From an uncultured Acidobacteriota bacterium (lineage in GTDB: Bacteria; Acidobacteriota; Vicinamibacteria; Vicinamibacterales; UBA2999), in the NCBI GenBank assembly GCA_963734095.1, contig CAVTGK010000040.1, positions 162,492 through 226,491 of the forward strand: DNA of 64,000 nucleotides, in the 5' to 3' direction. Position 1 is the stretch's first letter. The number at the start of each line of letters is the position of its first letter. The translations under genes and the position numbers were made by a program. The notes under the pieces are model-generated. The model was not told the origin of the DNA. It ran no database searches and saw only the letters and a list, made by a program, of their open reading frames with translations. This document shows, one piece after another, positions 2,515-64,000 of the stretch.

Positions 2515-3762
2515 ATGCGCGAAGGACTGATGCAACAAACGGATTCGAAACAGTCCGAGAAAGACTACCTGCGTCGCTCCGCCGGCGGTGAATGGGAGGC
2601 GCTCAAGCCGTTCCCGCCGCCGGGCCAGCTCGCCAGCGAGGCGCACGCCCAGTACCTGCTCGACTTTGCCGTGATGTTGCGCGTTCTGACGCCGACGGCC
2701 TCGGATCTCGTGCTCGATCTGGGTGCGGGTTCGTGCTGGGTGTCCGATTGGTTGCGGCGCTGCGGCGTCCGGACGGTTGCCCTCGATATTTCCTGGGACA
2801 TGCTGCGGTTGGGCGCTTCGCGCCTCGACGGTGCACGCGGCCTGGTCACCGGCGACATGGAAGACCTGCCGTTCGCCGACCGCACGTTCTCAAAGGCGTG
2901 CTGTCTGAATGCCTTCCACCACATTCCCGACACAGCGCGCGCACTACGCGAGATCAAACGAGTCCTGACGCCCGACGGCGTGGTGCTGTTCTCGGAGCCT
3001 GGAGTCGGCCATGCCAACCACCCGACGTCTCTGGCGGCAACCCGCAACTACGGGGTGCTCGAAAACGAGATCCTGATCGACGAGTTCATGGATGCTTGCC
3101 TGGCCGCTGGCTTCGTCGATGTGCGACTCCATCCCATCGCACACATCATTCCGCTGTTCGAGATGCAGCAGCAACAGTGGCGGGATTGGCGCCGCTTCAC
3201 GGCGAGCCAGCGTCCGTTCCGGGCGCTCGACAAGATGTGGCGAGCGGCGCTGGAAGTGGTCGGGCTCGGCAAGAAGCAGCTGCTCTTCGAAGAAGCATTC
3301 GCCATTCGGCTGCTGCGCGAGATGCAGCCAGTCATCGAGCAGCATCCGGTGGTGACGGCGCACAGGACGTCTTTCGTCAAGCCCACCCTCCGCGCCGACG
3401 GCGCGCGGATAGAACTGCTGGACCCGCCATCGTCTGTCGCGGCAGGCCGTGAGGTCGTGCTGCGCGTCCGCCTGGCCAACGTCGGCAACACGCGGTGGGA
3501 GACGTCACCAGGGGGAGGACAGGTGCGACTGGGCGTGCAACTGCTGACGCCCGACGGCACGGTGGTCACTCGCGACTACTCACGCCACGACTTGCCGGCG
3601 CCAATCGATCCTGGCGGCCGCTGTGAGCTGAGGCTGCAGATTGCGCCGCCACCCGACATGGCAGGGTATCAGCTGAAGATCGATCTCGTGCGGGAAGGTG
3701 TGTCGTGGTTCGAGCTGGCGGGGTCGGAACCGGCGGTGTATCAGGTGCGACAGGTGCGATAG
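2515..3762 (+). CDS. Class I SAM-dependent methyltransferase with C-terminal Ig-like/NBR1-like domain
   Basis: VLDLGAGSCW (motif I) and DLPFADRTFSKACCLNAFHH (Methyltransf_11-like). The last codons (YQVRQVR*) are encoded by the first GGTGCGA words of the downstream repeat. Confidence 0.8.
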   Translation: MREGLMQQTDSKQSEKDYLRRSAGGEWEALKPFPPPGQLASEAHAQYLLDFAVMLRVLTPTASDLVLDLGAGSCWVSDWLRRCGVRTVALDISWDMLRLGASRLDGARGLVTGDMEDLPFADRTFSKACCLNAFHHIPDTARALREIKRVLTPDGVVLFSEPGVGHANHPTSLAATRNYGVLENEILIDEFMDACLAAGFVDVRLHPIAHIIPLFEMQQQQWRDWRRFTASQRPFRALDKMWRAALEVVGLGKKQLLFEEAFAIRLLREMQPVIEQHPVVTAHRTSFVKPTLRADGARIELLDPPSSVAAGREVVLRVRLANVGNTRWETSPGGGQVRLGVQLLTPDGTVVTRDYSRHDLPAPIDPGGRCELRLQIAPPPDMAGYQLKIDLVREGVSWFELAGSEPAVYQVRQVR

Positions 3763-3825
3763 GTGCTGGGGTGCGACGGGTGCGGTGCGGTGCACGGGTG
3801 CACGGGTGCACAGGTGCGGGTGCAC
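3742..3825. repeat. Degenerate tandem GGTGCR / GGGTGCAC words
   Basis: caggtgcgacaggtgcgataggtgctggggtgcgacgggtgcggtgcggtgcacgggtgcacgggtgcacaggtgcgggtgcac. Confidence 0.7.
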
Positions 3826-3830
3826 CGTGC

Positions 3831-3902
3831 AATCACTCAATCACCCAATGCAATCACCCAATCACCCAATCACCCAATCACCCAATCACCCAATCACCCA
3901 AT
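3831..3902. repeat. Tandem 8-bp repeat AATCACCC (6 perfect copies at 3852-3899 plus degenerate copies)
   Basis: Read directly. Only partly complementary (GGGTG core) to the 3742-3825 array. The + strand ORFs 3698..3987 (HPITQSPN...) are just translations of this repeat. Confidence 0.9.
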
Positions 3903-3976: not shown

Positions 3977-6906
3977 CTAGAAAATAAACCGGAAGCCGAC
4001 GCGCGCGGTAAACGGCGCCAGAATCAACGTCGGCTTCAGGTAGCTCAAACCCGTCGCGCGGCCGATCGTTTCGGACGCGTGGCTGTTGGTGATGTTGAAG
4101 AGATCCAGGTACGCACGGATGCGAGTCCGACTGTTCAGCGTGATTGTCTTCTCCGTGCGCACGTCGAATACCCAGATGTTGTCTTCTCGATTGGCGTCAG
4201 CCGGCTCGGCATAGGCGGTCTGGCGATCGCCCGTGCCGCTGGTCGCAATCAGGTCGGGGCGCGAAACGGGATTGGCGGCGGCCGTCGTCGAAATGACCAC
4301 CGTGCGGGCAAAGTTGACACCCGACTGATGGCGCAGGACAGGAGAGAGCCGGATTCCCCACGGGGCCTCGTAGCTGCCTATTGCCTTGAGCCCCCACGTC
4401 GAGCGGTCCTGCACGCCAGGCATGTTCGGGTTGTTTGGGAACAGATCGTTCGGGAAGTTGGTGAGCATCGTGTAGCCGCCACCAACTTGCGCCGACCACT
4501 TGTTGGCGAAGCGCTTCGTGGTCGAGACCTCGATGGTCTTGTAGCGGCCATACCGCGGCACGTTCATGACAACCTGGTCGGCCGGGAAGAGGGTGTTGGC
4601 ATTTGCCGCCGGCAAACCCAACATCCTGATGATTTTATCGTCGGCGGTCCCAGCCCTGCCGTCGACACCAATATCGGTGAAGTCGAACGGCACCGTGAAC
4701 ACTTCCGGCCCGCGACCTGGCTGAAAGGTGTCGATCAGGTCGTCTTCGGTCTTGTAGACGAACCCGGCTCTCGCGCCCATAGAGTCATTCAGCTGGCGCT
4801 CGAACCAGACCGCTGCTTCGTGCGAGTACGGCGCCTTGATGTTCGGATCGACACGGATCGCGCCTTCGAGCGCGGCCGTGACAAACGTGGTCTCTTCGCC
4901 TGGCTGCCAGCGCTTGTCGCCCGCGATGCACCCGGCGCACGCTAGTTGGTCATTCCAGTTCCACGTGGAGGACTTACTGGCGATATTCGCGTTGCCGCTG
5001 GCTGGCACGCTGACGCCCGGGTTGTGCCAGTAGAGGCCGTAGTTGGCCTTCACGACCGTCCTCCCGTCGCCGCTCAGATCGTAGATGAAACCCACGCGCG
5101 GCGCGACCTGGTTCCACGTGAAGAGGTCCGTCTGCGGGAAGGTCTTGGCGTCCACCGATGCGCGGCCAACGGTCGCGCCGAGCTGCTGCTGCTCCGGCAA
5201 CCAGCCCTTGTAGTAGTCATAGCGGACGCCGCCATTGATCGTGACACGCCCGACCTGCCACGTGTCGTTGATGAAGAAGCCGATCTGATCGAGCGCCGCG
5301 CGGGACGTGAGGGCGCCGTTGTCGTTGTCCTTCAGGCTGCCGACGCTCGTTGCCGTGGGCAGACCGAAGATCACCTGCGTCGAGTTGCCGTTGTTGTAGA
5401 CCTGTTCGATATTGCTTGTGCCGCCGCGGCGCGAGAGGAAGCCTTCCCACGACTGCTCCTTCAGCAGCTCGCCGCCCATCTTGAACGTGTGGCTGCCCTT
5501 GGCGGTATCGAGAAAGTAGGTCGCGGCGCCCGTCCACTGCTTGCGGTCGCGATCGAGCTGCTGGCGCCTGATGCGCACCTTCAGAGATCAGCTGGCCCGT
5601 GTCGTGCCAGAAGAAGTTGTCAGGGCTGTTGGTGATGAGCGGGAAGTAGTACCCGAAGTCACCGTAGCGTGCTTCGAGATAAAGCTTGTCGGTGAGCGTC
5701 CCGTTCCATTCGGCCTTGTAGACCCAGCTGCCCGAGTCCTGCGCGAACGTCTGCTCGGGAGACAGGTAGCTGTAGGTCGCGAACGGCAGCCGATTCGGCT
5801 GTTCCTTCTGACCCCACTGGTAGTAGCCGATGATCTTGTGGTTCTGGTTCAGCTGATAGGTCCCCTTCACGACCGGGTTCCACAGCTTGGTGTCGAACGT
5901 CTTATCGAATTGGAAGTTCGGCTGCGCGACTGCATTGAATTGCTGCCGGAAAGTGCCGAAGTACCAGAGCTTGTCCCGCTTGATCGGTCCGCCGGCGTTG
6001 ATGTCGTGGTCGTAATAGCGCTCGATCTCGTTGCTGTGCGCCCGGATGGCATTGCTGCCATTGGTGCCGTTGAAGGCGGTCGGCGACGTGTAGTCGCTCG
6101 GGCAAGTTCGAGCCCTGCAGGGAGCTGTTGTACCAGTCGAGATGGTACTCGCCGAAGAACTGATTGGCGCCCGAGCGCGCGATGAACTGCGACTGCACGC
6201 CGGGGTTCGGCATCTCGGCCGACTGGCCCGATGTGCCGATAAACGCCTCCTCGAGCGACGCGTAATCGAAATAGAAACCGGCACCGCCTGTGCCTTCTGT
6301 CGTGTTGATACCTTCGATGAGCACACGTACCTGGCCGTTGAAGCCATAGGCGGTATAGCCGCTTTGCGTGCCGGCTCGGTTGCCGCCCACATCGACGCGA
6401 GCCATTGCCACCGATGGCGTGATCGCCAACAGGGCCCACATGTCGCGAGCGTTGGGAATCGACTGCAGTTGTTCGAGCTTGAAGTTCTGCTGAATACGAG
6501 TCGCGGACGTGTCGATGACGGGGGATTCACCCGTGACCGTGACCGTCTCTTGAAGTGTGGCGAGCACGAGCTCGATGTTGATGGTGGCCGTGAAGCCGAG
6601 TGTTATCAGAATGCCTTCCCGCTTCACACCGCTGAACCCGGCCAAGTCGTACGTCACGGTATAGGTGCCGGGCGGCACTGCCGGGAATCGATAGTTGCCG
6701 GTCTCGGAGCTGACCGTCGTCTGCGCTCCGAGCATCGACGGGCTGGTCGCAGTCACGGTCACGCCAGGGAGCACCGCGCCCTGCGCATCGGTGACGCGAC
6801 CTTGAATCGTGCCGGTGCTACTGGCACCACCGCCCTGCGCATAGGCAGGCGCGGCGACCGCGAGAGTCAGCGCGGCGATCAGCAATCCGCCAAGACAACG
6901 CTTCAT
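3977..6906 (-). pseudogene. TonB-dependent receptor with N-terminal CarboxypepD_reg domain, copy 1; two frame disruptions (about 6100 and about 5580)
   Basis: Three ORF pieces join colinearly into one receptor: 5902..6906 (signal peptide, GTIQGRVTDAQGAVLPGVTVTA), 5217..6530 and 3977..5578 (ends ..ARVGFRFIF*). The span is 2930 nt, not a multiple of 3. Confidence 0.85.
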
Positions 6907-10699: not shown

Positions 10700-10806
10700 T
10701 CGGCCGGTGGCCGGCGGCCGGGTAGTTTCCAGTTGCCAGTTACCAGTTCAAAGGGACTGGCCAACTGACAACTGACCGGAGGCCGGAGCCCTGCTGCCGG
10801 CCACCG
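10700..10806. repeat. Word hairpin (CCAGTT / AACTGG words, outer GGCCGG stem) downstream of eamA
   Basis: cggccggtggccggcggccgggtagtttccagttgccagttaccagttc-aaaggg-actggccaactgacaactgaccgg...gccggccaccg. Confidence 0.8.
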
Positions 10807-10820
10807 ACTCGTCCCTGTGT

Positions 10821-11726
10821 TCACACCGCGGGGTTCAGTCTCGTCACCGCGATTCCGCTCAGGATCAGCGCCGCGCCGAGGAGCTGTTGGCCGGTAATCC
10901 GCTCGCCAAGCCAGACGGCCGCCACGACCATGGCAACGATGGGTGTGAGATTGCTGTAGACCGCAGTCCGCGCGCTGCCGATCTCCTGTACCGCGGTGTA
11001 CCAAATCATGTACGCGAGAGCGAGCGCCAGCAGCGAGGACGCCGCCATCAACAGCCAACTCAGTGCTGAGATACGAGCCCAGTCGGTGGTGATGAGCGAA
11101 GGGAACGCCCCGATGCCGTAGAGGACGGCGCCGATCATCATCGCCCAACCCGTGACGACGAGCGGCGAGTGTCGCTTGAGCATCGGCTGTGCAGCCACCG
11201 AGTAGAGCGACCAGCACAGCATTCCGCAGAACACCAGAAGATCACCCACAAAGGTTGCGGCCGACAGCTCCGCCCGGTGACCGACGAGCGCGTAGATTCC
11301 AGCGAGTGACAACGCAGCGCCGCCCCACCGGGCCGCCGTGAGACGTTCATGCCCGGCAACGGACGACATGATCGCCACCGCCACTGGCGTGCATCCGAAC
11401 ATCAGTGCACTGTTCGCGACGCTCGTTCGCGCGAGGCCAGCGAGGAAAAACAATTGATAGAGAACCGTGCCGACGAGCGCGAGCATGACCAGAGTTGCCC
11501 ACTCGCGACGAGTCAGGCGCGGTTGGGGAGGTCGTTCGCCGGCGGCGGACTGGCGCTGGTGTCGTAGCATCGCGACCAGAAACACCGCGCCTGCCAGCAC
11601 GAGCCGCATGGCGTTGAACGAGACCTCGGGGAAGTCCCGAAGCGCGTATTTGATGGCGGAGAAGTTGGCGCCCCAGATGCCGACCATCAGGAGCAGCAGG
11701 AGGTCGAGACGGGAAAAGCGGCCCAT
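10821..11726 (-). CDS. EamA/DMT-family transporter
   Basis: 301 aa with 10 predicted TM segments. The N-terminus ..LLLMVGIWGANFSAIKYAL.. is typical of the EamA family. Confidence 0.8.
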   Translation of the reverse strand: MGRFSRLDLLLLLMVGIWGANFSAIKYALRDFPEVSFNAMRLVLAGAVFLVAMLRHQRQSAAGERPPQPRLTRREWATLVMLALVGTVLYQLFFLAGLARTSVANSALMFGCTPVAVAIMSSVAGHERLTAARWGGAALSLAGIYALVGHRAELSAATFVGDLLVFCGMLCWSLYSVAAQPMLKRHSPLVVTGWAMMIGAVLYGIGAFPSLITTDWARISALSWLLMAASSLLALALAYMIWYTAVQEIGSARTAVYSNLTPIVAMVVAAVWLGERITGQQLLGAALILSGIAVTRLNPAV

Positions 11727-11781: not shown

Positions 11782-11871
11782 GTGACCAGTTCGACCGCAA
11801 CCTCGACTCTTTGAACTGGTCACTGGCAACTGGAAACTAGCCGGCCGCTGGCTACCGGCCACTGGCCACCG
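11782..11871. repeat. Word hairpin (CCAGTT family) upstream of eamA
   Basis: gtgaccagttc-N20-gaactggtcac, then actggcaactggaaactagccggccgc... Positions 11813-11848 are the reverse complement of 10714-10749 with 2 mismatches in 36. Confidence 0.8.
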
Positions 11872-14852: not shown

Positions 14853-14970
14853 GGAGTTACAAGTTACAAGTTCACAAGTTACAAACCGCTGGGCCGATCC
14901 ACTCGCGCTCCAGGAGCAGCTCTGACCGAAAACTTGGCAACTCAACTTTGAACTTGTAACTTGTAACTTC
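14853..14970. repeat. Word hairpin H1 (GTTACAA words)
   Basis: ggagttacaagttacaagttcacaagttacaaacc-loop-aacttggcaactcaactttgaacttgtaacttgtaacttc. Ends 4 nt before the next start codon. Confidence 0.85.
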
Positions 14971-17096: not shown

Positions 17097-17102
17097 CGGG
17101 AC

Positions 17103-17170
17103 AGTTACAAGTTACAAGTTCAAAGTTGAGTTTGGGAGTTTGTAACTTGGAACTTGTAACTTGTAACTTC
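17103..17170. repeat. Word hairpin H2 (GTTACAA words), inverted copy of H1
   Basis: Positions 17103-17132 are the perfect reverse complement of 14939-14968 (30 nt). Ends 5 nt before the hemC ATG. Confidence 0.85.
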
Positions 17171-17175
17171 CGCCA

Positions 17176-19766: not shown

Positions 19767-20743
19767 AGCTCGAGCGACGGTTTCGACGCTTGCGCCGCAC
19801 GCCGGCGCTGCGTCGCCTGGTCCGCGAAACACGGTTGTCGGCGGATCAGTTCGTTTTGCCTCTTTTTGTCTGCGAAGGCGGCGGCGTTCGTCGTGAGGTG
19901 TCGTCGATGCCCGGCGTGTATCAATTGTCGGTGGACGAGGCCGTCACTGAGGCTGCTGCTGCGCGGAGTGACGGCGTCCCCGCGGTCTTGCTCTTCGGGC
20001 TGCCGAATGAGAAGGACGACGAGGGATCCGCGGCAGAGGATCCGGCCGGCCCCGTTCAACAAACCGTCCGGAGAATCCGCGATTCAGTCGCCGACATGGT
20101 CGTCATCACCGACGTCTGCCTTTGCGAGTACACGTCTCACGGGCATTGCGGAATCGTGGCTGATGGAGAGATCGTGAACGATGCCACGGTCGACCGACTC
20201 GTGCGCGCGGCGATCTCCCATGCCCGAGCCGGGGCCCATGTCGTCGCCCCGTCCGACATGATGGACGGACGTGTCGGGGCCATCCGGTCGGCGCTCGACG
20301 AGGCCGGATTCGACCAGGTCGCGATCATGAGCTACGCGGCAAAGTACTGCTCCGGGTTCTACGGACCGTTTCGTGAGGCGGCCGATTCGGCCCCGCAGTT
20401 CGGCGATCGCCGGAGCCACCAGATGGATACGGCCAACGTCGAAGAAGCGCTGCGGGAGGTGGCACAAGACATCGATGAGGGCGCTGATATCGTGATGGTC
20501 AAGCCGGCAATGCCGTACCTCGACGTGATTTGGCGCGTCCGCGAGCGATTCGGATATCCAACCGCAGCCTATCAGGTGAGCGGCGAGTACTCGATGATCA
20601 AAGCCGCCGCCCGCAACGGTTGGATCGATGAAGAGCGCGCGATGCTGGAGTCACTGACGGCCATTCATCGTGCGGGCGCGGAGATCATCATCACGTACTT
20701 TGCGCGCGAAGCGGCTCGGTGTGGTAAGAGGGCTAGGGCATAG
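19763..20743 (+). CDS. hemB: Porphobilinogen synthase (delta-aminolevulinate dehydratase)
   Basis: 326 aa. ..[27 protein letters not shown].. Confidence 0.9.
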
Positions 20744-20830
20744 GGCGTAGGGGCGTAGAGATGGGCCTAGGGGCTGTGCCCTGACGCCCTGGCCCTGCGC
20801 CCTGGCCCTGCGCCCTGCGCCCTGTGCCCT
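20727..20830. repeat. Word hairpin (GGGCRTA / GCCCTG words) filling the hemB-hemL gap
   Basis: agggctagggcatagggcgtaggggcgtagag...gccctgacgccctggccctgcgccctggccctgcgccctgcgccctgtgccct. Contains the hemB stop and abuts the hemL ATG. Confidence 0.85.
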
Positions 20831-22132: not shown

Positions 22133-22298
22133 GGGTTCTTGAAGGAGGTTCTTGACGAAGGTTCTTCACGCAGGTTCGACGGAGGTTCTTCACCGGGGTT
22201 CTGCGAAGGTTCGTGACGGGGTTCTCGCGAGAACCTTCGTCAAGAACCATTGTGGAACCGTCGTGAAGAACCTCCGTCGAGAACCGTCGTTAAGAACC
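22133..22298. repeat. 166-bp palindrome built of 11-14-nt GGTTCTTSA words between convergent genes
   Basis: 8 left units containing GGTTCT/GGTTCG and 6 right units containing AGAACC/GGAACC. Symmetry centre is ctcgcgag at about 22228. Confidence 0.85.
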
Positions 22299-31295: not shown

Positions 31296-31388
31296 CAGGG
31301 CACAGGGCGCAGTGGCATAGGGCGGAGGGCGCGACAGGATTGAGGCCCAATCCCTCCTATGCCCTGCGCCCTGTGTCCTACGCCTGTC
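31296..31388. repeat. Word hairpin (GGGCRCA words) between pyrE and truA
   Basis: cagggcacagggcgcagtggcatagggcggagggcgcgac-aggattgaggcccaatccctcc-tatgccctgcgccctgtgtcctacgcctgtc. Confidence 0.85.
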
Positions 31389-33811: not shown

Positions 33812-33946
33812 ATCGCAGGGCACAGGGCAGGGGTACGGGCACAGGGCACAGGGAATAGGGCGTAGGGCATAGGGCGGGCTAGGGACAGGGACTGAGGGCC
33901 CTAATCCCTCCCCTATGCCCTGTGCCCTGCGCCCTCTGCCCTGTAC
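33801..33946. repeat. Word hairpin (GGGCRCA words), asymmetric (about 90-nt left arm, about 40-nt right arm)
   Basis: Shares the loop core tgagggccctaatccctcccctatgccctg with 31296-31388. Confidence 0.85.
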
Positions 33947-37862: not shown

Positions 37863-38745
37863 TGGCTGAATGGGTGATTGTGATAGGCACAGGGCGCAGG
37901 GCACAGGGCACAGGGTCGGGACGCAGGGTGCAGGGCGCAGCTCGCAGAGATCTAGTGCCCTGCTCCCTACCCTGAGCCCCGTGCCCTGTGCCCTCGCCCT
38001 GTCTTAGATTTCGCCGTCCCGGTCTGCACAGCCCGCGGAGCGGGCATTGACCGTCCCGCTGCTTCGTCCCAAAACCGCACGCTTTCATCATGCCGATGTG
38101 GCAGAGCGAAAAGTCGAAGCGCACGGGATCGACCGGGTCGAGCGCGCGGAGCGATCGGGTGATGTCGGCCGCCATTCGCCAACCCGGGCTGGTGTATCGG
38201 GTCAGCCGCAGGCATCGACCGACACGAATCACGTGGGTGTCGAGGGGCACGATCAGTTGGGACGGCCGCACGTGCGACCAGATACCCAGGTCGACCTCGT
38301 CACGCCGAACCATCCAGCGCAGGAAAAGATTCAACCGCTTGCACGCGCCGCCGCTCGAGGGACGCGCAAAGAAGTACGACACGCCGGGACGGGAGGGAAC
38401 GCGACCGTAGATCGCGTCGAGATTCAGGCCGCACGCGCGCGTGGAAAACGCGTCGAGAGCGGCTTCGACGGTCTCTGCGCCATCGTCCAGCCCGTCGGCG
38501 AAGAAGCCTTCGATCGAACCTCGCCGGTCGATCATCTGGCGGAGGACCCACACAAGGGCCGCGAGGTCCACGCCGCGGGTCCATCGGTGCTGCAAATGAT
38601 CGAGGGCGCGCCGATCACGGCCAGGGTCGAAAGCCCGGACATAGGCGGCCGGCGAAGGACCCATCACCTTCAGCAGGCCTTCAATTGAATTCAAAACGCT
38701 TTGCACACGGCCGAATGCCAGTGCCGCGGCGCAGAATCCCACCAC
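37756..38745 (-). CDS. TIGR02757 (DUF2400)-family protein; both ends uncertain
   Basis: ..VVGFCAAALAFGRVQ..LNLFLRWMVR..CPLRGLCRPG. Homology continues upstream of 38745 (..LDALYHQFNDAQSVTDPIQIVRRFS..) with no in-frame ATG or GTG. The last 86 codons only translate the repeat and overlap the next gene. Confidence 0.55.
   Translation of the reverse strand: MVGFCAAALAFGRVQSVLNSIEGLLKVMGPSPAAYVRAFDPGRDRRALDHLQHRWTRGVDLAALVWVLRQMIDRRGSIEGFFADGLDDGAETVEAALDAFSTRACGLNLDAIYGRVPSRPGVSYFFARPSSGGACKRLNLFLRWMVRRDEVDLGIWSHVRPSQLIVPLDTHVIRVGRCLRLTRYTSPGWRMAADITRSLRALDPVDPVRFDFSLCHIGMMKACGFGTKQRDGQCPLRGLCRPGRRNLRQGEGTGHGAQGREQGTRSLRAAPCTLRPDPVPCALRPVPITITHSANAITQSPNHAFTHCRGSPHPARVGAGMDPVAWTDS
37828..38003. 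repeat. GGGTGATT word array (37828-37885) fused to a GGGCRCA word hairpin (37884-38003)
   Basis: gagtgaatgcgtgattgggtgattgagtgattgc..., then ataggcacagggcgcagggcacagggcacagggtcggg...gtgccctgctccctaccctgagccccgtgccctgtgccctcgccctgtc. Confidence 0.85.
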
Positions 38746-42852: not shown

Positions 42853-42936
42853 AAGGTGCCTACGGTGCCTCGGTGCCTGGGGTGCCTAAGGTGCTGGTGC
42901 AAGAAGTGCGTTCGGTGCCTAAGGTGTATGAAGTGC
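42853..42936. repeat. GGTGCCT word array: left arm of a split hairpin
   Basis: aaggtgcctacggtgcctcggtgcctggggtgcctaaggtgctggtgcaagaagtgcgttcggtgcctaaggtgtatgaagtgc. About 70% reverse-complementary to 44375-44467. Confidence 0.8.
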
Positions 42937-43330: not shown

Positions 43331-44251
43331 ATGCACGGGGGCCCGGCAGGCATCCACTCTCGGGTAACGAGGCGGCTCGCTGTGCGGATTCTGCTGACCG
43401 TGCTGATTGTAAGCGGAACAGCCCATCCTCGACCCGTCTGGCCCTTCGCATGGGCGGCGCAGGATCGTGCGGATGCTACCAACGGTGTCGTCGAGGTTGA
43501 GGGCGGTCGCATCTACTACGAGGTGACTGGGCAAGGACCAGCGCTGGTTCTCATCCACGACGGCATCCTCCACCGCGAAACGTGGGATGAGCAGTTCGCC
43601 GAATTCGGCCGTTCGTTCCGGACCGTCCGCTGGGATCGTCGCGGCTACGGAAAGTCGCCCGCTCCTCAGGCGCCGTTCTCACATATCGATGACCTGCTCC
43701 TGGTCATGAAAGCGCTGAAGATCGAGCGCGCCGCTCTGATCGGCTGCTCGGCTGGAGGCATGCTGGCGCTACATTTCGCGCTCGATCATCCCGCGATGGT
43801 GAGCGCGTTGGTGCTCGTCGGCCCGATTGTCAGTGGCCTGCCATTCTCCGATCACTTCGTGACTCGTGGCGGGCGGAAGATTCCTCCCCCCGGCAGTCCT
43901 GCCGAAGATAGGATCGATTACTGGACGTCGAAGGATCCCTGGATTACCGCTCCGACCAGCGATGGCGCGAAGCGTAAGATGCGCTCACTCATGGAGGCGA
44001 ATCCGGCGAACGGCGCGGGCGGGCAACACGCACGCTGGTCCGAGCCAGTCCTGGGCCGGTTATCGCAGATCAAGGTTCCGACCCTCTTGATCGCCGGCGA
44101 GTCGGACATTCCCGACGTGCATAGCAGTATGGGTGCGATTCAGGCTGGCGTCCCGGCCGTCACGCGCGTCGTGTTGGCGCATGCGGGCCATTTGCCGCAT
44201 CTTGAAGTGCCACAAGCCTTCAACGCAGAAGTGTTGAAGTTCCTTCGGTAA
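43331..44251 (+). CDS. Alpha/beta-fold hydrolase
   Basis: 306 aa. ..LVLIHDG..LIGCSAGGMLAL..LLIAGESD..AHAGHLPHLE.. Confidence 0.8.
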   Translation: MHGGPAGIHSRVTRRLAVRILLTVLIVSGTAHPRPVWPFAWAAQDRADATNGVVEVEGGRIYYEVTGQGPALVLIHDGILHRETWDEQFAEFGRSFRTVRWDRRGYGKSPAPQAPFSHIDDLLLVMKALKIERAALIGCSAGGMLALHFALDHPAMVSALVLVGPIVSGLPFSDHFVTRGGRKIPPPGSPAEDRIDYWTSKDPWITAPTSDGAKRKMRSLMEANPANGAGGQHARWSEPVLGRLSQIKVPTLLIAGESDIPDVHSSMGAIQAGVPAVTRVVLAHAGHLPHLEVPQAFNAEVLKFLR

Positions 44252-44374: not shown

Positions 44375-44467
44375 GCACTGTTACACGCACTTAGGCACTT
44401 CTGGCACCTTTCGCACTTTAGGCACCAGCACGCCAGGCACCTTCGGCACCCAGGCACGCCAGGCACT
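44375..44467. repeat. AGGCACC word array: right arm of the split hairpin
   Basis: gcactgttacacgcacttaggcacttctggcacctttcgcactttaggcaccagcacgccaggcaccttcggcacccaggcacgccaggcac. Confidence 0.8.
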
Positions 44468-44478
44468 CTTACCCCTTT

Positions 44479-46239
44479 TCACCTCCCGTAACTTGGAATG
44501 AACGTGATCGGTTGATCGGCGGTGAACTCGGGCTTGAAGAGATCGGTTCGTGCGAAGCCTTCCATGTCTCGCCCGACCGGCAGGCCCAGGTAGTACAAAA
44601 CGGTTGGCGTCAGATCGAGGACGGATGCTCGCGGCGGGCGGCTGGGCGCCACGGCGACGCCATAGGCCAGCAGAAAGCCGTCCGGCGACCGCTCGTGGCT
44701 GCCGCTGAGCCGGTCGTTTCCCACCAGACGTTCGAGCATGCGTTTGCCTGGCGTCAAGGGCTCCATGCCGAATCCGGACACCACGAGTAGCAAGTCGTTC
44801 GTGCCCATGGACTGCAGAACCTGGCCCACGACGGCATCAATGAAGCCGTAGTAGTCGCCGAGCACACGACCGTAGCGGCGTTGCTCGTCGGCCGACACAT
44901 CGCCAAACTCCGAGGGGTTGGCATACCGCAGGAAGTAGTGCCCTACCGCATCGAGCCCTGGCAGCCTGACGGCAATGACCTGCGGCGTCATCGAGACGTC
45001 GAGCGCCGACAGGATCTGGACGTGCATGCGATCGGCGGCGATCGGCGCCGGATCGGGTCGCGCGTCGGCGTCCCCTTGCGGCGCCTCGGCCACCTTGGAC
45101 ACGACAGCGATCGGATCGACGGTGGGTGGCTTCTGCAAAGCAGCGCGGATCGAGGCGTACAGTGACGGCGGTGCGATCGCGGACGCGTGACCGTGATCCA
45201 CGTCCACATCCGCCATTCGATGAAACTCGTCGCTGACGATGAAGCCGTTCACAGTGGTCGCCGGATGCGTGAGCGGCCAGCCGATGAATCCGACCGAGAC
45301 GCCAGCGTCGCTGAGAATCGTCCACAGCGGCCGCGACTGCAGTGCGCCGGCATCATGGGCCTGCTCATCGAGAAAACCAAACCGCACGAGCGCGTAGGCG
45401 AAGCAGTAGTCGGGCAGCATCTCGAGTGCCGGGCCGGCCTCTCGGGCGCGGTACAAGGTGGAGGCACGAATGCCGTTGGCGAACGGCACACGGCCCGTGA
45501 TCGCCGCGCTCCACACCGGCTCTGCTTGCGTTGGACGCAGCGTGGCAAGGTGCAGGACGGCGCCGGCATCGAAGATTCGCCCCAAATTCGGCAAGCGTCC
45601 TTCCGCTACCGCTGGAGAGATCACGTCGAGACTGCCACCATCGACCGCGACGATCAGCACTCGTGCGTCGGTTCGCGCTGGTCCGAGGCCGACGACGGCC
45701 GCACTGGGACGCGACGCCAGCGTGCTGGCGCGACCGGGTCCCCGCGCCGCCAGCGGCGCCGCCACCGAGATTGCCATCATCGCCGTCAACAGCACGGCAC
45801 TGACGCGCCCTCCTCGCCGCCCGAGATGGGCGAGCGCGATCAGCAAAAACACGACCGTCGACGCCGACAGCGTGACGGCGCCCGCCGTCATCCGCGTCAC
45901 GGTTTGCGGGTCCAGCACCATCGTGAAAACGCGCAGATTGAGCCACATGATGGTCGCACACACACCCGCGGCGATCGTGCAGAGCCACGAGAGCAGACGG
46001 ACGCTCAACCACCCCGGTGACAACACCTCGCTCGCCAGCATCTGGCGACCGACGATCAGTGCGAAGAAGAACGCCGTCACGGAGATGCCACACGCCACGA
46101 CCAGGACGAGCGCCAGCGGCACGACAGCGCCGACGGTGAGCGGGAACGACGGATTGAGATGCAGGATCAGGATCGTCAGGTAGAGGGATGCCAGCGCACC
46201 GGCGATCGCCGCATTCGACAGCATTCGCAGAAAGCGCAC
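44479..46239 (-). CDS. Membrane-anchored alkaline-phosphatase-superfamily protein (type I phosphodiesterase/nucleotide pyrophosphatase-like)
   Basis: 586 aa. About 5 N-terminal TM helices, then ..VLIVAVDGGS..PTQAEPVW..LPGLDAVGH..VVSGFGM.. Confidence 0.7.
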   Translation of the reverse strand: MRFLRMLSNAAIAGALASLYLTILILHLNPSFPLTVGAVVPLALVLVVACGISVTAFFFALIVGRQMLASEVLSPGWLSVRLLSWLCTIAAGVCATIMWLNLRVFTMVLDPQTVTRMTAGAVTLSASTVVFLLIALAHLGRRGGRVSAVLLTAMMAISVAAPLAARGPGRASTLASRPSAAVVGLGPARTDARVLIVAVDGGSLDVISPAVAEGRLPNLGRIFDAGAVLHLATLRPTQAEPVWSAAITGRVPFANGIRASTLYRAREAGPALEMLPDYCFAYALVRFGFLDEQAHDAGALQSRPLWTILSDAGVSVGFIGWPLTHPATTVNGFIVSDEFHRMADVDVDHGHASAIAPPSLYASIRAALQKPPTVDPIAVVSKVAEAPQGDADARPDPAPIAADRMHVQILSALDVSMTPQVIAVRLPGLDAVGHYFLRYANPSEFGDVSADEQRRYGRVLGDYYGFIDAVVGQVLQSMGTNDLLLVVSGFGMEPLTPGKRMLERLVGNDRLSGSHERSPDGFLLAYGVAVAPSRPPRASVLDLTPTVLYYLGLPVGRDMEGFARTDLFKPEFTADQPITFIPSYGR

Positions 46240-46249
46240 TCTTGGATTC

Positions 46250-46376
46250 TAGTTCGGAGTTCGGAGTACGGGAGTTCGGCGTTGGTTCGACGTTCGGAGT
46301 TCGGAGTTCGGGTTCGGGGTACGGGGTTCTGAGTTCTGTTCTGAGTTCTGTTGCTGAGTGCGGAGTTCTTGGCGCG
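46250..46376. repeat. GTTCGGA / GTTCTGA word array: left arm around the four-helix-bundle gene
   Basis: gttcggagttcggagtacgggagttcggcgttggttcgacgttcggagttcggagttcgggttcggggtacggggttctgagttctgttctgagttctgttgctgagtgcggagttc. Confidence 0.8.
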
Positions 46377-46396
46377 GGAGTTGCCTTCATGTCCGC

Positions 46397-46765
46397 ATGC
46401 CCTGGCGACAATTCACGGAAATCGAGGCTTGGAAGCTCTGTATGAGATTGAGCCAGGAATTCGAGGCAATTCTTGACAGGCCGCCGGCCTCCCAAGATCG
46501 CAAGTTCTGCGAGGAGGCTCGTGATGCCGCCCTCTCGTCGCCGCGAAACATCGCTGAGGGCTTTGGCCGGTTCGGCAATCGAGAGTTCGCCAACTTCGTC
46601 AGCATCGCCCGAGCGAGCCTGATGGAGACACAGACGAATCTGCTCTTCGCGCGCGATGCCAGATTCCTATCAGCGCCGGAATTCAAAAGCCTGTGGGACC
46701 TTTCGGAGGAAGCTCTCTCAACAACCACCGGATTGCTCAAACATCTTCGCAGACGTCGGCCCTGA
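46397..46765 (+). CDS. Four-helix-bundle protein (23S rRNA intervening-sequence protein family)
   Basis: MPWRQFTEIEAWKLCMRL..RNIAEGFGRF..REFANFVSIARASLMETQT.L..A is the characteristic pattern of this family. The start at 46397 was chosen inside ORF 46358..46765. Confidence 0.8.
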   Translation: MPWRQFTEIEAWKLCMRLSQEFEAILDRPPASQDRKFCEEARDAALSSPRNIAEGFGRFGNREFANFVSIARASLMETQTNLLFARDARFLSAPEFKSLWDLSEEALSTTTGLLKHLRRRRP

Positions 46766-46782
46766 CGACGGAATAGGCGGCC

Positions 46783-46941
46783 AGAACTCAGCACGCCGCA
46801 GGCCGTATGCCGCAGGCCGAACGCCGCACGCGGCACGCCGAACGCCGAACGCCGAACAGAACTCAGAACCTCCGAACTCGGAACAAGAGCTCAGAACTCT
46901 GAACACTGCACCAACTCCGAACCCCGCACCCCGAACTCCGC
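46783..46941. repeat. TCAGAAC / TCCGAAC / GCCGAAC word array: right arm around the four-helix-bundle gene
   Basis: cagaactcagcacgccgcaggccg...gccgaacgccgaacgccgaacagaactcagaacctccgaactcggaac...ccgaaccccgcaccccgaactccgcag. Reverse-complement words of 46250-46376. Confidence 0.8.
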
Positions 46942-46961
46942 AGTTGGCTATACTCAACAAA

Positions 46962-47795
46962 ATGCCCGTTGACATCAACGCGGCTGTGATCAGCAACGTC
47001 AGGCTGTCGGAGGACTACAACGTTCTAGCGCTGGCGGCGCCCGCGATTGGCGAGCAGACGCAGCCCGGCCAGTTCGTCATGGTCAAGGCCGCATTGCCTG
47101 CCGATTCGCTGCTGCGGCGACCATTCTCGGTCTTTGAGGTCGTGCGGGACAACGGCCGCGTGGCCGCGATCAGCATCTTCAATAAACGCGCCGGTCAGAA
47201 CACGCGGGCGTTGTATGAGCTCGAACCCGGCGAGCGTGTCGCTTGCCTTGGCCCGCTTGGAAAGTCGTTCTCACTAGCGCCGTACGACGCGTGGATGGTG
47301 GCTGGTGGCGTCGGGTTGGCGCCGTTTGCGACACTCGCCGAACGCCTGACGCAGTCCCGCATCAAGACGACGCTTTTCTATGGCGCGCGTCGAGCCGGCG
47401 AGTTGTTCTATCTGGACTTCTTCGAACGACTGGGAGTCACGCTCGTGCTGTCGACCGAGGACGGAAGTCGCGGCGTGCGGGGCCGAATCACTTCGCCGCT
47501 CGAATCCGCGTTGGCGTCACTGCCCGGGCGCGATCAGGTCATGATCTACGGCTGCGGACCTGAGCCAATGCTCGAGGCAGTCACCAGGCTGGCCGTAAAG
47601 TATCGACAGCCCTGTGAGGTTTCCGTCGAACGCGTCATGGGATGCGGCCTGGGCGGCTGCTATAGCTGTGTTGTTCCAGTCCGCAATGGGGATGGCGGAC
47701 CGCACTTCGTACGCTCATGCCTGGCCGGACCAGTATTTGATGGATCCCAAATCGTGTGGGACTTCTTCCCGGGTGGCACCGATGCACCCGCCTGA
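46962..47795 (+). CDS. pyrK: Dihydroorotate dehydrogenase (class 1B) electron-transfer subunit
   Basis: FAD/NAD-binding fold with a C-terminal 2Fe-2S motif, MGCGLGGCYSCV...C. The ATG at 46962 lies 7 nt after a TATACT hexamer. The upstream part of ORF 46656.. only translates the repeat. Confidence 0.85.
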   Translation: MPVDINAAVISNVRLSEDYNVLALAAPAIGEQTQPGQFVMVKAALPADSLLRRPFSVFEVVRDNGRVAAISIFNKRAGQNTRALYELEPGERVACLGPLGKSFSLAPYDAWMVAGGVGLAPFATLAERLTQSRIKTTLFYGARRAGELFYLDFFERLGVTLVLSTEDGSRGVRGRITSPLESALASLPGRDQVMIYGCGPEPMLEAVTRLAVKYRQPCEVSVERVMGCGLGGCYSCVVPVRNGDGGPHFVRSCLAGPVFDGSQIVWDFFPGGTDAPA

Positions 47796-49719: not shown

Positions 49720-49863
49720 CACGAAGATCACGAACGGGATCTTCCGGCTAAAGCCGGAAGCCACGCGGAATTCATTCTCCTGTGGAGAGTTCATCCTCCT
49801 GTGGGAGTTCATCCTCCTGTGGCTTCCGCCTTCAGGCGGAAGATCCCGTTCGTGATCTTCGTG
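49720..49863. repeat. Composite palindrome: perfect 27-bp inverted repeat enclosing two 8-bp hairpins and three tandem 18-19-nt units
   Basis: cacgaagatcacgaacgggatcttccg (49720-49746) is the exact reverse complement of 49837-49863. Inner tandem is ttcatYctcctgtggRag x3 (49771-49823). Confidence 0.9.
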
Positions 49864-61824: not shown

Positions 61825-63231
61825 ATGGGCAGGCTGACCTCGATGATCGCGCTGGTCCTCGTCCTGGCCGGGCTCGGCGCGTACATCTATTTCGTCGACT
61901 CGAAACGGCCAGCAACGAGCGTCGCAGAGAAGGCCAAGGTTTTCACGGTCGAGGCGGACAAGGTCGAGGAAGTCACCATCACCTCGGACAGCGAAACCAG
62001 CACCCTTCGGAAGGTGGACGGCACTTGGCGGATGACCGCGCCCGTTCAGGCGGACGTGGACCAGAGCGAGATCTCCAGCGTGACGAATGCGCTCTCGACG
62101 GTGGAGGTCAATCGTGTCGTCGAAGAGAACGCGAGCAGCCTGGCCGACTACGGGCTTGCCACGCCGCGGATCACGGTGGCGTACAAGGCTGCCGGCGGCA
62201 GCGAAGGCCAGCTCCTGATCGGAGACAAGTCGCCGACGCAGAGCGATGTCTACGCGATGAAGCCGGGCGAGAAGCGGGTGTTCCTGGTCGCTGGCTTCAA
62301 CGAATCGACGTTCGCCAAAAAACCGTTCGACCTGCGAGACAAACGGATCCTCGACTTCGAACGCGACAAAATCGATTCGGTGGAAGTCGTACGCGACGCC
62401 AACACCGTCCTGCTGGCGCGTAGCGGCAGCGAGTGGGTCGTCAAGCAACCGATTCAGGCGCGCGGTGACTACAGCGCGATCGAAGCCCTGATCACAAAAC
62501 TCGCCAGCGGCAGGATGACCCGCCTGGTGGAAGGCGCGGGGTCGACACCGAAGGACGCTGCAGGTCTCGCCAAATACGGGCTCGCCAAGCCGGTCGCGCG
62601 TATCTCGCTCGGAACCGGCAGCGCGCGAGCGACGCTGGCGCTCGGCAAAGAGGAAGAAGGCGCCGTGTACGCTCAGGATCAGGGACGCGGCTTGATCTTC
62701 ACCGTTGACCCAACGTTCATGTCGGATCTCAAGAGCGCGGCCGGCGACTATCGCGACAAGGAAATGTTCGAGACGCGCGGGTTCAACGCTGCCCAGGTGC
62801 GAGTCGTGCGCGGCGCCGAAACGCTCGAGTTCCGAAAGAGCGCCGGCACTGGCGAGAACGCCGGGGAGACGTGGCAGCGCGTGGTGGACGGCAAGCCCGC
62901 CGACGTCGACATGGCCAAGATGGAAGACTTCTTGTCGAGACTGACGGCGTTGCGAGCGCAGTCGTTCGTGGCCGTCTCGCCGAGTACAGGCCTCGCGACG
63001 CCCAGTCTGGTGGTGTCGAGCAGTTACGACAACGGAAAGTTCGAGCGGGTCCGGATCGCGAAGAACGCCGAAGTGTTTGGCGCACGCGACGGCGAACCGG
63101 GGGTGGCCAAGCTGGACACCGCTGCGTACGACGAAGCCATCAAGGCGCTCGAGGCGGTACTCGCGCCACCGGCTCCACCGGCACCGGCACCATCGCCAAG
63201 CCCTAAGGGCCCCGACAGTCCTAAGCCCTAG
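61825..63231 (+). CDS. DUF4340-domain protein (usual partner of GldG-like proteins)
   Basis: 468 aa. N-terminal TM anchor, repeated beta-rich modules and a Pro/Ala-rich tail. Position after the GldG-like gene is typical. Confidence 0.65.
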   Translation: MGRLTSMIALVLVLAGLGAYIYFVDSKRPATSVAEKAKVFTVEADKVEEVTITSDSETSTLRKVDGTWRMTAPVQADVDQSEISSVTNALSTVEVNRVVEENASSLADYGLATPRITVAYKAAGGSEGQLLIGDKSPTQSDVYAMKPGEKRVFLVAGFNESTFAKKPFDLRDKRILDFERDKIDSVEVVRDANTVLLARSGSEWVVKQPIQARGDYSAIEALITKLASGRMTRLVEGAGSTPKDAAGLAKYGLAKPVARISLGTGSARATLALGKEEEGAVYAQDQGRGLIFTVDPTFMSDLKSAAGDYRDKEMFETRGFNAAQVRVVRGAETLEFRKSAGTGENAGETWQRVVDGKPADVDMAKMEDFLSRLTALRAQSFVAVSPSTGLATPSLVVSSSYDNGKFERVRIAKNAEVFGARDGEPGVAKLDTAAYDEAIKALEAVLAPPAPPAPAPSPSPKGPDSPKP

Positions 63232-63285
63232 GCCCTTGGCCTTGGGCCCTAGATCCCTGTGCCCCGTGCCCTGCGCCCTGCGCCC
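63201..63285. repeat. GCCC-type word array with a small palindrome (cctaggccc-ttggcctt-gggccctag)
   Basis: Covers the DUF4340 stop and the proposed GTG start and signal peptide of the next gene. Confidence 0.7.
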
Positions 63286-64000
63286 TTCCTCAGCATCGCG
63301 CTTTCGATCAGTCTGACCGGCTGCGCTTCATCGACCGGATCACTGGCCCCATCACGCGCGAGCCGTCAGATCGACGCTCGTTCACAGCTATCGCAGGATC
63401 TCGGCCGGATCTTTGGCGCCGAAGCGTTCGATCACGCGCATTGGTCGGTCGCGCTCGCGTCGGCCACGTCTGGCGAGACGTTGTATAGCCTTGACGCACG
63501 TCGTTTGATGATTCCCGCGTCCAACCAGAAGGTTCTGACGGCCGCGGCCGCAGCCGAGCGACTGGGGTGGAACTATCGGTTCACCACGCGGGTGCTCGCC
63601 ATGGGTTCGGTCATCGAGGGCACGCTCGACGGCAATCTCATCATCATCGGCAACGGTGATCCGACGATCAACCCTCGTCATCCGGATCGGTGGCGGGCCT
63701 TTGATGACTGGGCGGCCGCCATCAGGGCGAAGGGCATTCTGCATGTCGCAGGAGACGTGATCGGGGACGACAACGCGTTCGCCGAACCTGGCTGGGGCAT
63801 GGGATGGTCGTGGGATGACCTGCCGTTGGGTTACGGGGCCGCCGTCGGTGCATTGCAGTACAACGAAAACCAGGTCGAGGTGGTGGTTGGTCCCGCCATG
63901 ACGGCTGGCGCCCGCGCCATCCTCACGACGTCGCCGTTTGGCAGCGGCATTTTCGTCGAGAACAGCGTCACAACGGCCCCGGCCGGATCCGAAACGAAGA
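63259..64000 (+). CDS. dacB: D-alanyl-D-alanine carboxypeptidase/endopeptidase (PBP4, peptidase S13), 5' partial
   Basis: The frame runs off the window end. It carries a lipoprotein-like signal MPRALRPAPFLSIALSISLTGC from GTG 63259 and ..LMIPASNQKVLT.. (SxxK). The track omits it because it has no stop in the window. Confidence 0.75.
   Translation, partial: MPRALRPAPFLSIALSISLTGCASSTGSLAPSRASRQIDARSQLSQDLGRIFGAEAFDHAHWSVALASATSGETLYSLDARRLMIPASNQKVLTAAAAAERLGWNYRFTTRVLAMGSVIEGTLDGNLIIIGNGDPTINPRHPDRWRAFDDWAAAIRAKGILHVAGDVIGDDNAFAEPGWGMGWSWDDLPLGYGAAVGALQYNENQVEVVVGPAMTAGARAILTTSPFGSGIFVENSVTTAPAGSETK

Follow-up and report, generated by a model that had tools for sequence, protein, structure and literature searches.

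Organisation of the locus

The window, a stretch of 64,000 nucleotides from an uncultured Acidobacteriota bacterium, contains a gene for a four-helix-bundle (4HB) protein that is enclosed by two arrays of degenerate tandem words. The words of the right array are the reverse complement of those of the left array, and the gene thus occupies the loop of a long hairpin. Gene and arrays are referred to here as the cassette, and the arrays as its arms. The cassette is situated between a gene of the type I phosphodiesterase/AlkP family and pyrK, and the open reading frames (ORFs) found within 3 kb of the 4HB gene were AlkP/phosphodiesterase, pyrK, pyrD and pyrF. The coordinates of the features are collected in Table 1.

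The product of the gene, 122 aa plus stop, matched PF05635 (23S_rRNA_IVP) with an E-value of 9e-20 and 71.3 bits (curated cut-off 33.8) and TIGR02436 (four helix bundle protein) with an E-value of 5e-19 and 68.5 bits (cut-off 24). The AlphaFold2 (AF2) monomer model of the protein consisted of four helices with a predicted local distance difference test (pLDDT) value of 94. A Foldseek search with this model returned 2GSC first, with a template modelling (TM) score of 0.82-0.89, followed by 2RLD (BT_0352) and Avd (4DWL, 8UB7); Xcc0516 (2GSC) was also the sole sequence match in the PDB. A homopentamer ring is known for 2GSC, 2RLD and 4DWL. The residues N51, I52, A53, E54, G55, A71, S74 and E77, which include the motif NIAEG...S..E, were invariant across 20 family sequences. 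Comparison with close relatives, which have 60-73% protein identity to the window protein, gave a ratio of non-synonymous to synonymous substitution rates (dN/dS) of 0.15-0.17, and the ORF is under purifying selection. The tblastn search for further remnants of 4HB genes in the window gave just a 15-aa match at chance level (4425-4469), inside another gene.

The third-position GC content of the gene, taken for the 46358-46765 call, was 0.66 compared to 0.72-0.84 in the neighbouring genes, which may point to a history or an expression regime of its own. The family is large, with 5,973 clusters at 50% identity in a single-sequence search. Many of its database entries have 135-290 aa, compared to about 120 expected. 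Such over-long entries probably arise when gene callers carry the reading frame back through the repeat array; the ORF that starts at the GTG at 46358 here is an example.

Flanking arrays and their pairing

The composition of the two arrays was found to be skewed in opposite directions, the left array having 42% G and 32% T and the right array 40% C, 28% A and 23% G. The probe GTTCKGAGTTC (at most one mismatch) had 16 matches in the 64 kb compared to 2.3 expected, and 15 of these fell within the two arrays. The orientation of the matches was strictly split, with the left array on the plus strand and the right array on the minus strand. The colinear cores of the arms match at 76 of 93 aligned positions (~82%), and an irregular GTTG after the fourth word is common to both arms. 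The right arm begins 15 nt past the stop codon. On its inner side, the right array has 65 nt of GCCGCAC words (46791-46854) that lack a partner in the left arm, and neither flank forms a self-hairpin by itself (self-hairpin scores 14 and 13).

The minimum free energy fold of 46240-46950 paired ~46249-46350 with ~46850-46947 and had a z-score of -8.0; none of 20 shuffled sequences was equally stable. The cofold of the isolated arms gave -174 kcal/mol on the plus strand and -172 kcal/mol on the minus strand, compared to -112 +/- 6 kcal/mol for mononucleotide shuffles and -135 +/- 7 kcal/mol when the right arm was permuted in blocks of 7 nt. As this permutation weakens the cofold, the arms are more than arrays with common words; they are colinear inverted repeats of tandem 7-nt words. 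No target-site duplications were visible at the outer arm ends in the window or in the related loci L164 and L001, and neither a recombinase nor a transposase is encoded by the cassette.

These results are in accordance with an earlier note on this DNA, which had described a 4HB gene bracketed by mutually reverse-complementary word arrays and had expected a stable long-range stem on folding. The arm length of 130-160 nt given there has to be reduced: the arms are indeed paired, and they measure ~95-130 nt, with ~95-100 nt per arm regularly paired. The non-ribosomal context assigned to the gene, between a phosphodiesterase-family gene and pyrK, was upheld, as the Rfam search of the window at the gathering cut-off gave no rRNA and the element lies outside any rRNA gene here.

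Survey of the 4HB family

The flanks of other 4HB genes were analysed in two samples. The genome sample comprised 80 loci found with the family profile in species-representative genomes of Acidobacteriota, Bacteroidota, the candidate phyla radiation (CPR), Acidimicrobiia, Planctomycetota, Proteobacteria and others, of which 78 were testable; the metagenome sample comprised a further 80 loci, of which 62 were scored. For the inverted-repeat score, the 250 nt preceding each gene were aligned locally to the reverse-complemented 250 nt that follow it, and the best alignment was scored; loci with at least 35 were taken as positive. This score was reached by 45 of the 78 genome loci compared to 0.30% of 9,885 control positions, and 55 of the 78 exceeded every control position of equal spacing at the same locus. 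When the identical flanks were compared in direct orientation, only 7 of 78 reached 35. The metagenome sample gave 38 positives out of 62, and the pooled non-redundant loci 86 out of 131 (66%). The flanking complementarity, whose absence from other 4HB genes would by the note's own criterion have spoken against it, is therefore common, and the hairpin-embedded layout is a trait of the family, found in about two-thirds of its members across phyla. A blastn census of the genome loci also revealed 32 long-loop inverted repeats bracketing exactly the 4HB gene compared to 15 others in 580 kb, and several of those 15 involve 4HB arms as well.

The arms of the 86 positive loci have a median length of 52 nt (range 25-147) and a median identity of 0.86. 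Clear periodicity was seen in 64 of them, with a period of 7-9 nt in 42 and of 23-24 nt in 8 of these 64. The right arm starts a median of 14 nt past the stop codon, and the left arm ends a median of 64 nt before the start codon. The words differ at nearly every locus and track the base composition of the genome (GGTGCGA, GGTTCCA, GAGTCTG, TAATTAG, AATGGTA and AAAAAGC are examples); the positive loci span genomes of widely different GC content. The polarity of the arms was nearly constant, the left arm having more G than C in 48 of 50 loci and in 78 of the 86 pooled positives. By the symmetry of the structure, either strand when read 5' to 3' begins with a G-rich arm and ends with a C-rich one. 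No Rfam matches were obtained with 12 related loci either, CPR, Brevundimonas and Betaproteobacteria among them, and together with the result for the window this places these copies in neither an rRNA gene nor a known RNA family.

Some loci deviated from the common pattern. In L056, L095, L104, L152 and others the arms are built from units of 23-24 nt (about GGGTGCTYGGAACTGACGCTNNA) in place of words of 7-9 nt. In L156 and L157 the words GTGCACRGG flank the 4HB gene in direct and not inverted orientation (141-215 and 735-785 in L157), and a tRNA-like sequence was spotted by eye beside the L157 gene at ~830-905.

Relation to ribosomal intervening sequences and other known systems

The family is known from intervening sequences (IVSs) of rRNA genes. 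In the 23S helix-45 IVS of Coxiella burnetii, terminal inverted repeats form a stem of 28 bp whose loop contains the S23p ORF (PMC4990558). The 5' end of this IVS carries three to four tandem GACAGAT heptamers, their copy number depending on the strain, and the first of these repeats is where RNase III cleaves (PMC4990558). PF05635 ORFs are also found within 16S and 23S insertions of CPR bacteria (PMC11270868), and shorter hairpin versions of rRNA IVSs exist that have no ORF (PMC4990558; PMC11270868). The window cassette resembles these elements in its terminal inverted repeats and in the ORF of the same family in the loop. It differs in lying outside rRNA, in its arms of degenerate words (~100-130 nt compared to ~28 bp) and in the sigma54-type promoter which the gene seems to own; RNase III excision, if it occurs here, would be by analogy. 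Leptospira, Brucella and CPR bacteria are further hosts of ORF-bearing rRNA IVSs with which it may be compared.

The closest structural homologue, XCC0516, was found in a second kind of context. Its orthologues (L165-L172) have the gene order aroQ-accB-4HB-accC-prmA in Xanthomonas, Lysobacter, Dyella and Dokdonella, and the ORF is enclosed by (GGGAATN)x4 and the complement of this array. Folding of a single sequence gave a long-range stem with a z-score of -8.7, and RNAalifold over the four Xanthomonadales genera gave one of 22 pairs, most of which do not vary; there are a single compensatory change and several changes of the G:U type. Over these genera the coding sequence is less conserved than the arms, and the likely GTG start lies within the left heptamer arm. 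The genes accB and accC are normally adjacent and co-transcribed. The cassette between them thus interrupts an essential operon in the manner of an IVS, and read-through transcription must cross both arms. Of the indirect evidence that the RNA stem has a role, this accBC insertion is considered the strongest. The XCC0516 locus and the window locus share the protein fold and an ORF placed between a heptamer array and its complement; they differ in that the former lies inside an operon, keeps its site and orientation in four genera, has highly conserved arms of ~30 nt and shows no internal sigma54 motif. The relation to IVS elements proposed for the window gene thus gains from both sides, from the heptamers and 28-bp stem of the Coxiella IVS and from the 22-bp heptamer stem in accBC.

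Avd (4DWL, 8UB7) has a homologous pentameric four-helix-bundle fold. It binds an RNA stem-loop encoded directly downstream of it, and the RNA of the diversity-generating retroelement (DGR) has a long-range duplex bracketing the template. By this analogy it is plausible that the 4HB protein acts on its own flanks. The window differs from a DGR in having no reverse transcriptase, template repeat (TR) or variable repeat (VR), and its flanks are arrays of tandem words.

In the systems of repetitive extragenic palindromes and their associated tyrosine transposases (REP/REPIN-RAYT), inverted copies of a repeat flank one protein gene, and the same repeat is also found gene-less as intergenic hairpins. 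The layout of the window resembles this, with one gene between inverted arrays and many gene-less hairpins. The differences are that RAYT is a Y1 (HUH) transposase and REPs are conserved within a genome, whereas no catalytic fold is known for the 4HB protein and the words vary between hairpins. The cassette resembles invertible DNA segments in that relatives carry its loop in either orientation; it encodes no site-specific invertase, and the inversions of the 4HB loop were seen between genomes.

Long simple-sequence repeats (SSRs) with units of 5-11 nt, among them intergenic tandem heptamers, are described as abundant in scattered lineages including Xanthomonas campestris (Mrazek 2007, as summarised in PMC4679880). 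The window arrays, like these and the cyanobacterial and Beggiatoaceae heptamer repeats, are intergenic tandem heptamers, but the latter are reported as direct arrays. Among the reports of tandem heptamers searched, none was found in which a PF05635 gene is placed between paired inverted arrays.

Position and orientation of the cassette among relatives

The orthologous loci L001, L002, L163 and L164 retain arrays with related words (GTGCGGA/TCCGCAC, GTGCTGA) despite a dS above 1.2. Within an otherwise conserved neighbourhood of pyrimidine genes, both position and orientation of the cassette vary. At the site between pyrR and the phosphodiesterase gene (site A), the cassette is in plus orientation in L001, L002 and P0022 and inverted in L163. 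At the site between the phosphodiesterase gene and pyrK (site B), it is in plus orientation in the window and inverted in L164 and P0020. Where the window carries its cassette, L002 has an empty word hairpin and L001 a hairpin with an IS256-type transposase in the loop. In L001, words are shared between the arrays to the left and right of the phosphodiesterase gene.

The same behaviour was observed elsewhere in the family. L100 and L117 differ by a clean inversion of the loop, and L115 carries the cassette on the opposite side of a neighbouring gene compared to L117. The differences between orthologous Bacteroidota loci are chiefly word-sized insertions and deletions within the arrays. Since the loop is present in both orientations and at two neighbouring hairpins, the cassette is inverted and relocated among close relatives, and its arms behave as recombining inverted repeats of DNA.

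Candidate promoter signals

The motif YGGCAC-N5-TTGC, placed so that 12-14 nt separate its GC from the start codon, was present in 57 of 158 loci compared to 1.2% of control windows; the loci carrying it are essentially the acidobacterial and soil ones. Motif positions that were not used for selection also fit the sigma54 consensus (T 98%, C 90%, A 70%), which was taken as TGGCACG-N4-TTGCW with GG and GC 10 nt apart and ~12 nt before the transcription start. The site in the window has two mismatches and is not significant alone, its weight coming from the conservation across loci. The position of the motif predicts a leaderless 4HB mRNA that would start inside the loop; with such an internal start, the 4HB transcript would end in the unpaired C-rich array.

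In relatives with long spacers, the palindrome GCAGAAAYTGC occurs near -129 and -95 in 27% of loci compared to 5% of background windows. This pair has the geometry of enhancer sites and suggests that the 4HB genes may form a regulon under one enhancer-binding protein. The -10-like boxes that touch the outer arm ends in the window (Table 1) were also seen in L164 and L002. They imply that the host genes on both sides may be leaderless, with -35 regions made of array words. The scan of 46100-47100 for sigma70 promoters and intrinsic terminators gave no promoter-like sites and, on the plus strand, nothing above chance.

Interpretation of the element

The element in the window is best explained as a non-ribosomal cassette of the IVS type, composed of an inverted array, a putative promoter, a 4HB ORF predicted to be leaderless and a second inverted array, whose arms recombine as DNA and, in read-through RNA, would form a stem of the kind cut by RNase III. 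This explanation is given a probability of about 0.6. In a read-through transcript spanning the element, the arms would form a long imperfect duplex cleavable by RNase III as in the rRNA IVSs, and such cleavage would make the insertion tolerable in rRNA genes, operons and promoter regions. The build from tandem words would permit register-tolerant pairing and a fast change of length by slippage. Transcripts started internally would run into an unpaired 3' array that is rich in C and poor in G, a possible loading region for Rho, and the internal promoter could be insulated in this manner. The pentameric 4HB protein probably binds such stems, by analogy with its homologue Avd.

Several observations weigh against this explanation. 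The arms match at just ~82%, and the differences are mostly transversions. The G:U test on 50 loci gave 54 sense-compatible and 67 antisense-compatible transitions and 165 transversions, with no bias for either strand; together with the equal fold energy on both strands, selection on RNA pairing thus finds no support in these tests here. As the window cassette is placed between divergent genes, read-through transcription is not obviously required. Given a promoter inside the loop, the own mRNA of the 4HB gene would be without the 5' arm and unable to form the long stem. About one third of the family members have no detectable flanking repeat. Finally, an EamA transporter gene, a hydrolase gene and an insertion sequence (IS) element are also found in the loops of word hairpins, and the loop position is thus not exclusive to the 4HB gene.

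Alternatively, the arms could matter as DNA only, being recombining inverted repeats for flipping of the loop and for copying of the cassette into other word hairpins, with an RNA stem that is incidental outside rRNA and operons. Both orientations and two sites among close relatives, the lack of G:U strand bias with equal fold energy on both strands, the putative promoter inside the loop and the single word family that flanks both hairpins around the L001 phosphodiesterase gene all fit such a role. It is nevertheless held to be rather unlikely: the cassette encodes no recombinase or transposase and shows no target-site duplication at its outer ends, the rRNA IVSs need an RNA stem (PMC4990558), and the Xanthomonadales cassette, fixed in its operon and orientation over four genera with arms that outconserve the ORF, points to a pairing constraint within the transcript. 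Even less probable is that word hairpins are a generic intergenic feature of this genome, REP-like or serving as terminators or insulators, with fragile or permissive loops in which the 4HB gene is one cargo among several. The window has at least six gene-less word hairpins, the EamA gene (score 84) and the alpha/beta-hydrolase gene (score 51) also sit in split hairpins, the L001 hairpin has a transposase in its loop, and the L002 hairpin is empty at the site of the window cassette. Against these stand the 2 of 55 other window genes that are bracketed, compared to ~66% of PF05635 genes across phyla, the positive members in genomes of very different GC content, the tight packing of the right arm (median 14 nt past the stop codon) and the persistence of the association over order-level divergence.

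The arrays could also be iteron-like DNA sites, bound by the 4HB pentamer or by a sigma54 enhancer-binding protein, which control the cassette and two outward host promoters. They cover -20 to -150 of the sigma54-like promoter and the regions upstream of the flanking -10 boxes, and long-spacer relatives have the GCAGAAAYTGC palindromes near -129 and -95. The words are, however, almost wholly different between loci with invariant protein motifs, an enhancer needs neither inverted symmetry nor a fixed G/C polarity, and arrays are present in phyla where the sigma54 motif was not found; this possibility is regarded as very improbable. A fragment of a DGR or a CRISPR-like array is scarcely credible, in spite of the match of the fold to Avd and the reports of PF05635 as CRISPR-associated (PMC3936711, PMC10910872). 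With a phosphodiesterase-family gene and pyrK as its neighbours, the cassette has neither a reverse transcriptase nor a TR/VR pair beside it, and the only repeats are the word arrays. These repeats are contiguous 7-mers without spacers, compared to 23-50 nt with unique spacers in CRISPR arrays, and no cas genes are nearby. The cassette is not a REP/RAYT system either, the protein being a four-helix bundle and not a Y1 (HUH) transposase and the words varying between the hairpins of the window.

A wider proposal is put forward tentatively and is more doubtful than the IVS-type cassette itself. According to it, PF05635 proteins would be dedicated partners of short-tandem-repeat hairpins and would form with them one widespread self-contained element, of which the rRNA IVSs, operon copies like XCC0516 and gene-less word hairpins would be manifestations or remnants. 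The protein would bind, protect, process or help to propagate the stems, like RAYT with REP or Avd with DGR RNA.

Significance

ORF-bearing S23p IVSs, heptamer SSRs and the CRISPR-association reports are already known, and what is apparently undescribed is the widespread hairpin-embedded 4HB cassette. In the literature, no description was found of PF05635 genes outside rRNA lying generally within inverted arrays of tandem words; subscription journals were mostly outside this search, which makes it weak evidence. The 23S rRNA IVS looks like one case of a widespread hairpin-embedded gene cassette. Two puzzles have long been kept separate, namely the role of the very large S23p/4HB family, of which two crystal structures carry no assigned role, and the question of where the abundant intergenic heptamer repeats come from and what they do. 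Should most 4HB members be built into inverted heptamer arrays, each puzzle becomes a handle on the other, and the rRNA IVS turns from a curiosity into one insertion context of a general element. The spurious N-terminal extensions given to 4HB proteins by gene callers would also be accounted for, and the flanking arrays may contribute to the reports of PF05635 genes as CRISPR-associated. Xanthomonas campestris, with its cassette splitting the accBC operon, is a tractable organism for such work.

Other word hairpins in the window

Three of 56 crude gene calls in the window sit singly between one-sided complementary arrays, and these are the EamA, hydrolase and 4HB genes. The null for this score, taken from intergenic gaps paired at distances above 8 kb in the window, had a median of 18 and a 99th percentile of 41. 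The arms of the EamA gene consist of GGCCGG and CAGTTNC words. The hydrolase hairpin lies at site A, beside the pyrR leader, which is the position of the 4HB cassette in L001 and L002; its loop also holds ~400 nt of unassigned sequence.

The gene-less word hairpins have loops of 20-60 nt, span whole intergenic spacers and often reach to within ~5 nt of the next start codon. Their G-rich arm comes first, a polarity matching that of the 4HB locus. The words vary from hairpin to hairpin, and families of words reappear far apart in the window: AGTTACA at 10724, 14855 and 17103, and CAGGGCA/GCCCTG words at 373, 20729, 31296, 33816, 37886 and 63220.

Table 1: Positions of the 4HB cassette, its neighbouring genes and signals, and the other word hairpins of the window
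Feature	Position	Strand	Remarks
Phosphodiesterase/AlkP-family gene	44479-46239	-	left neighbour; GTG start
-10-like TAGAAT	46246-46251	-	abuts outer end of left arm; 6 nt before phosphodiesterase GTG
Left (5') arm	46250-46378	+	~18 degenerate 7-nt words GTTCGGA, GTTCTGA, GTACGGG; G/T-rich
Left-arm colinear core	46255-46348	+	pairs with 46847-46940
Candidate sigma54-like -24/-12 element TGGCGCGGGAGTTGCC	46370-46385	+	GC 12 nt before ATG, inside loop
4HB protein gene	46397-46765	+	PF05635 / TIGR02436; Xcc0516/S23p/Avd fold; purifying selection
Right (3') arm	46780-46945	+	words TCCGAAC, TCAGAAC, GCCGAAC, GCCGCAC; C/A-rich; reverse complement of left words
Right-arm colinear core	46847-46940	+	pairs with 46255-46348
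-10-like TATACT	46949-46954	+	abuts outer end of right arm; 7 nt before pyrK ATG (46962)
pyrK	46962-47795	+	right neighbour; ATG at 46962
EamA/DMT transporter gene	10821-11726	-	arms 10702-10753 and 11809-11860, 92% complementary over 52 nt; score 84
Alpha/beta-hydrolase gene	43331-44251	+	GGTGCCT array 42855-42935, AGGCACC array 44380-44470; score 51
Gene-less word hairpins	14855-14968, 17099-17171, 22134-22298, 33822-33944, 37889-38002		also 20729-20830, 31296-31323, 373-409, 63220-63286

Two further structures were observed in the window. At 3742-3825 a G-rich array of GGTGCGA words immediately precedes a C-rich array at 3830-3902 with non-complementary words (CAATCACC). The self-hairpin score is no more than 19, which gives the impression that two arms from separate hairpins were fused. 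The hairpin at 49720-49863 is of a distinct type, with non-repetitive 45-nt arms that are 93% complementary and a tandem 18-mer (49767-49822) in the loop region.

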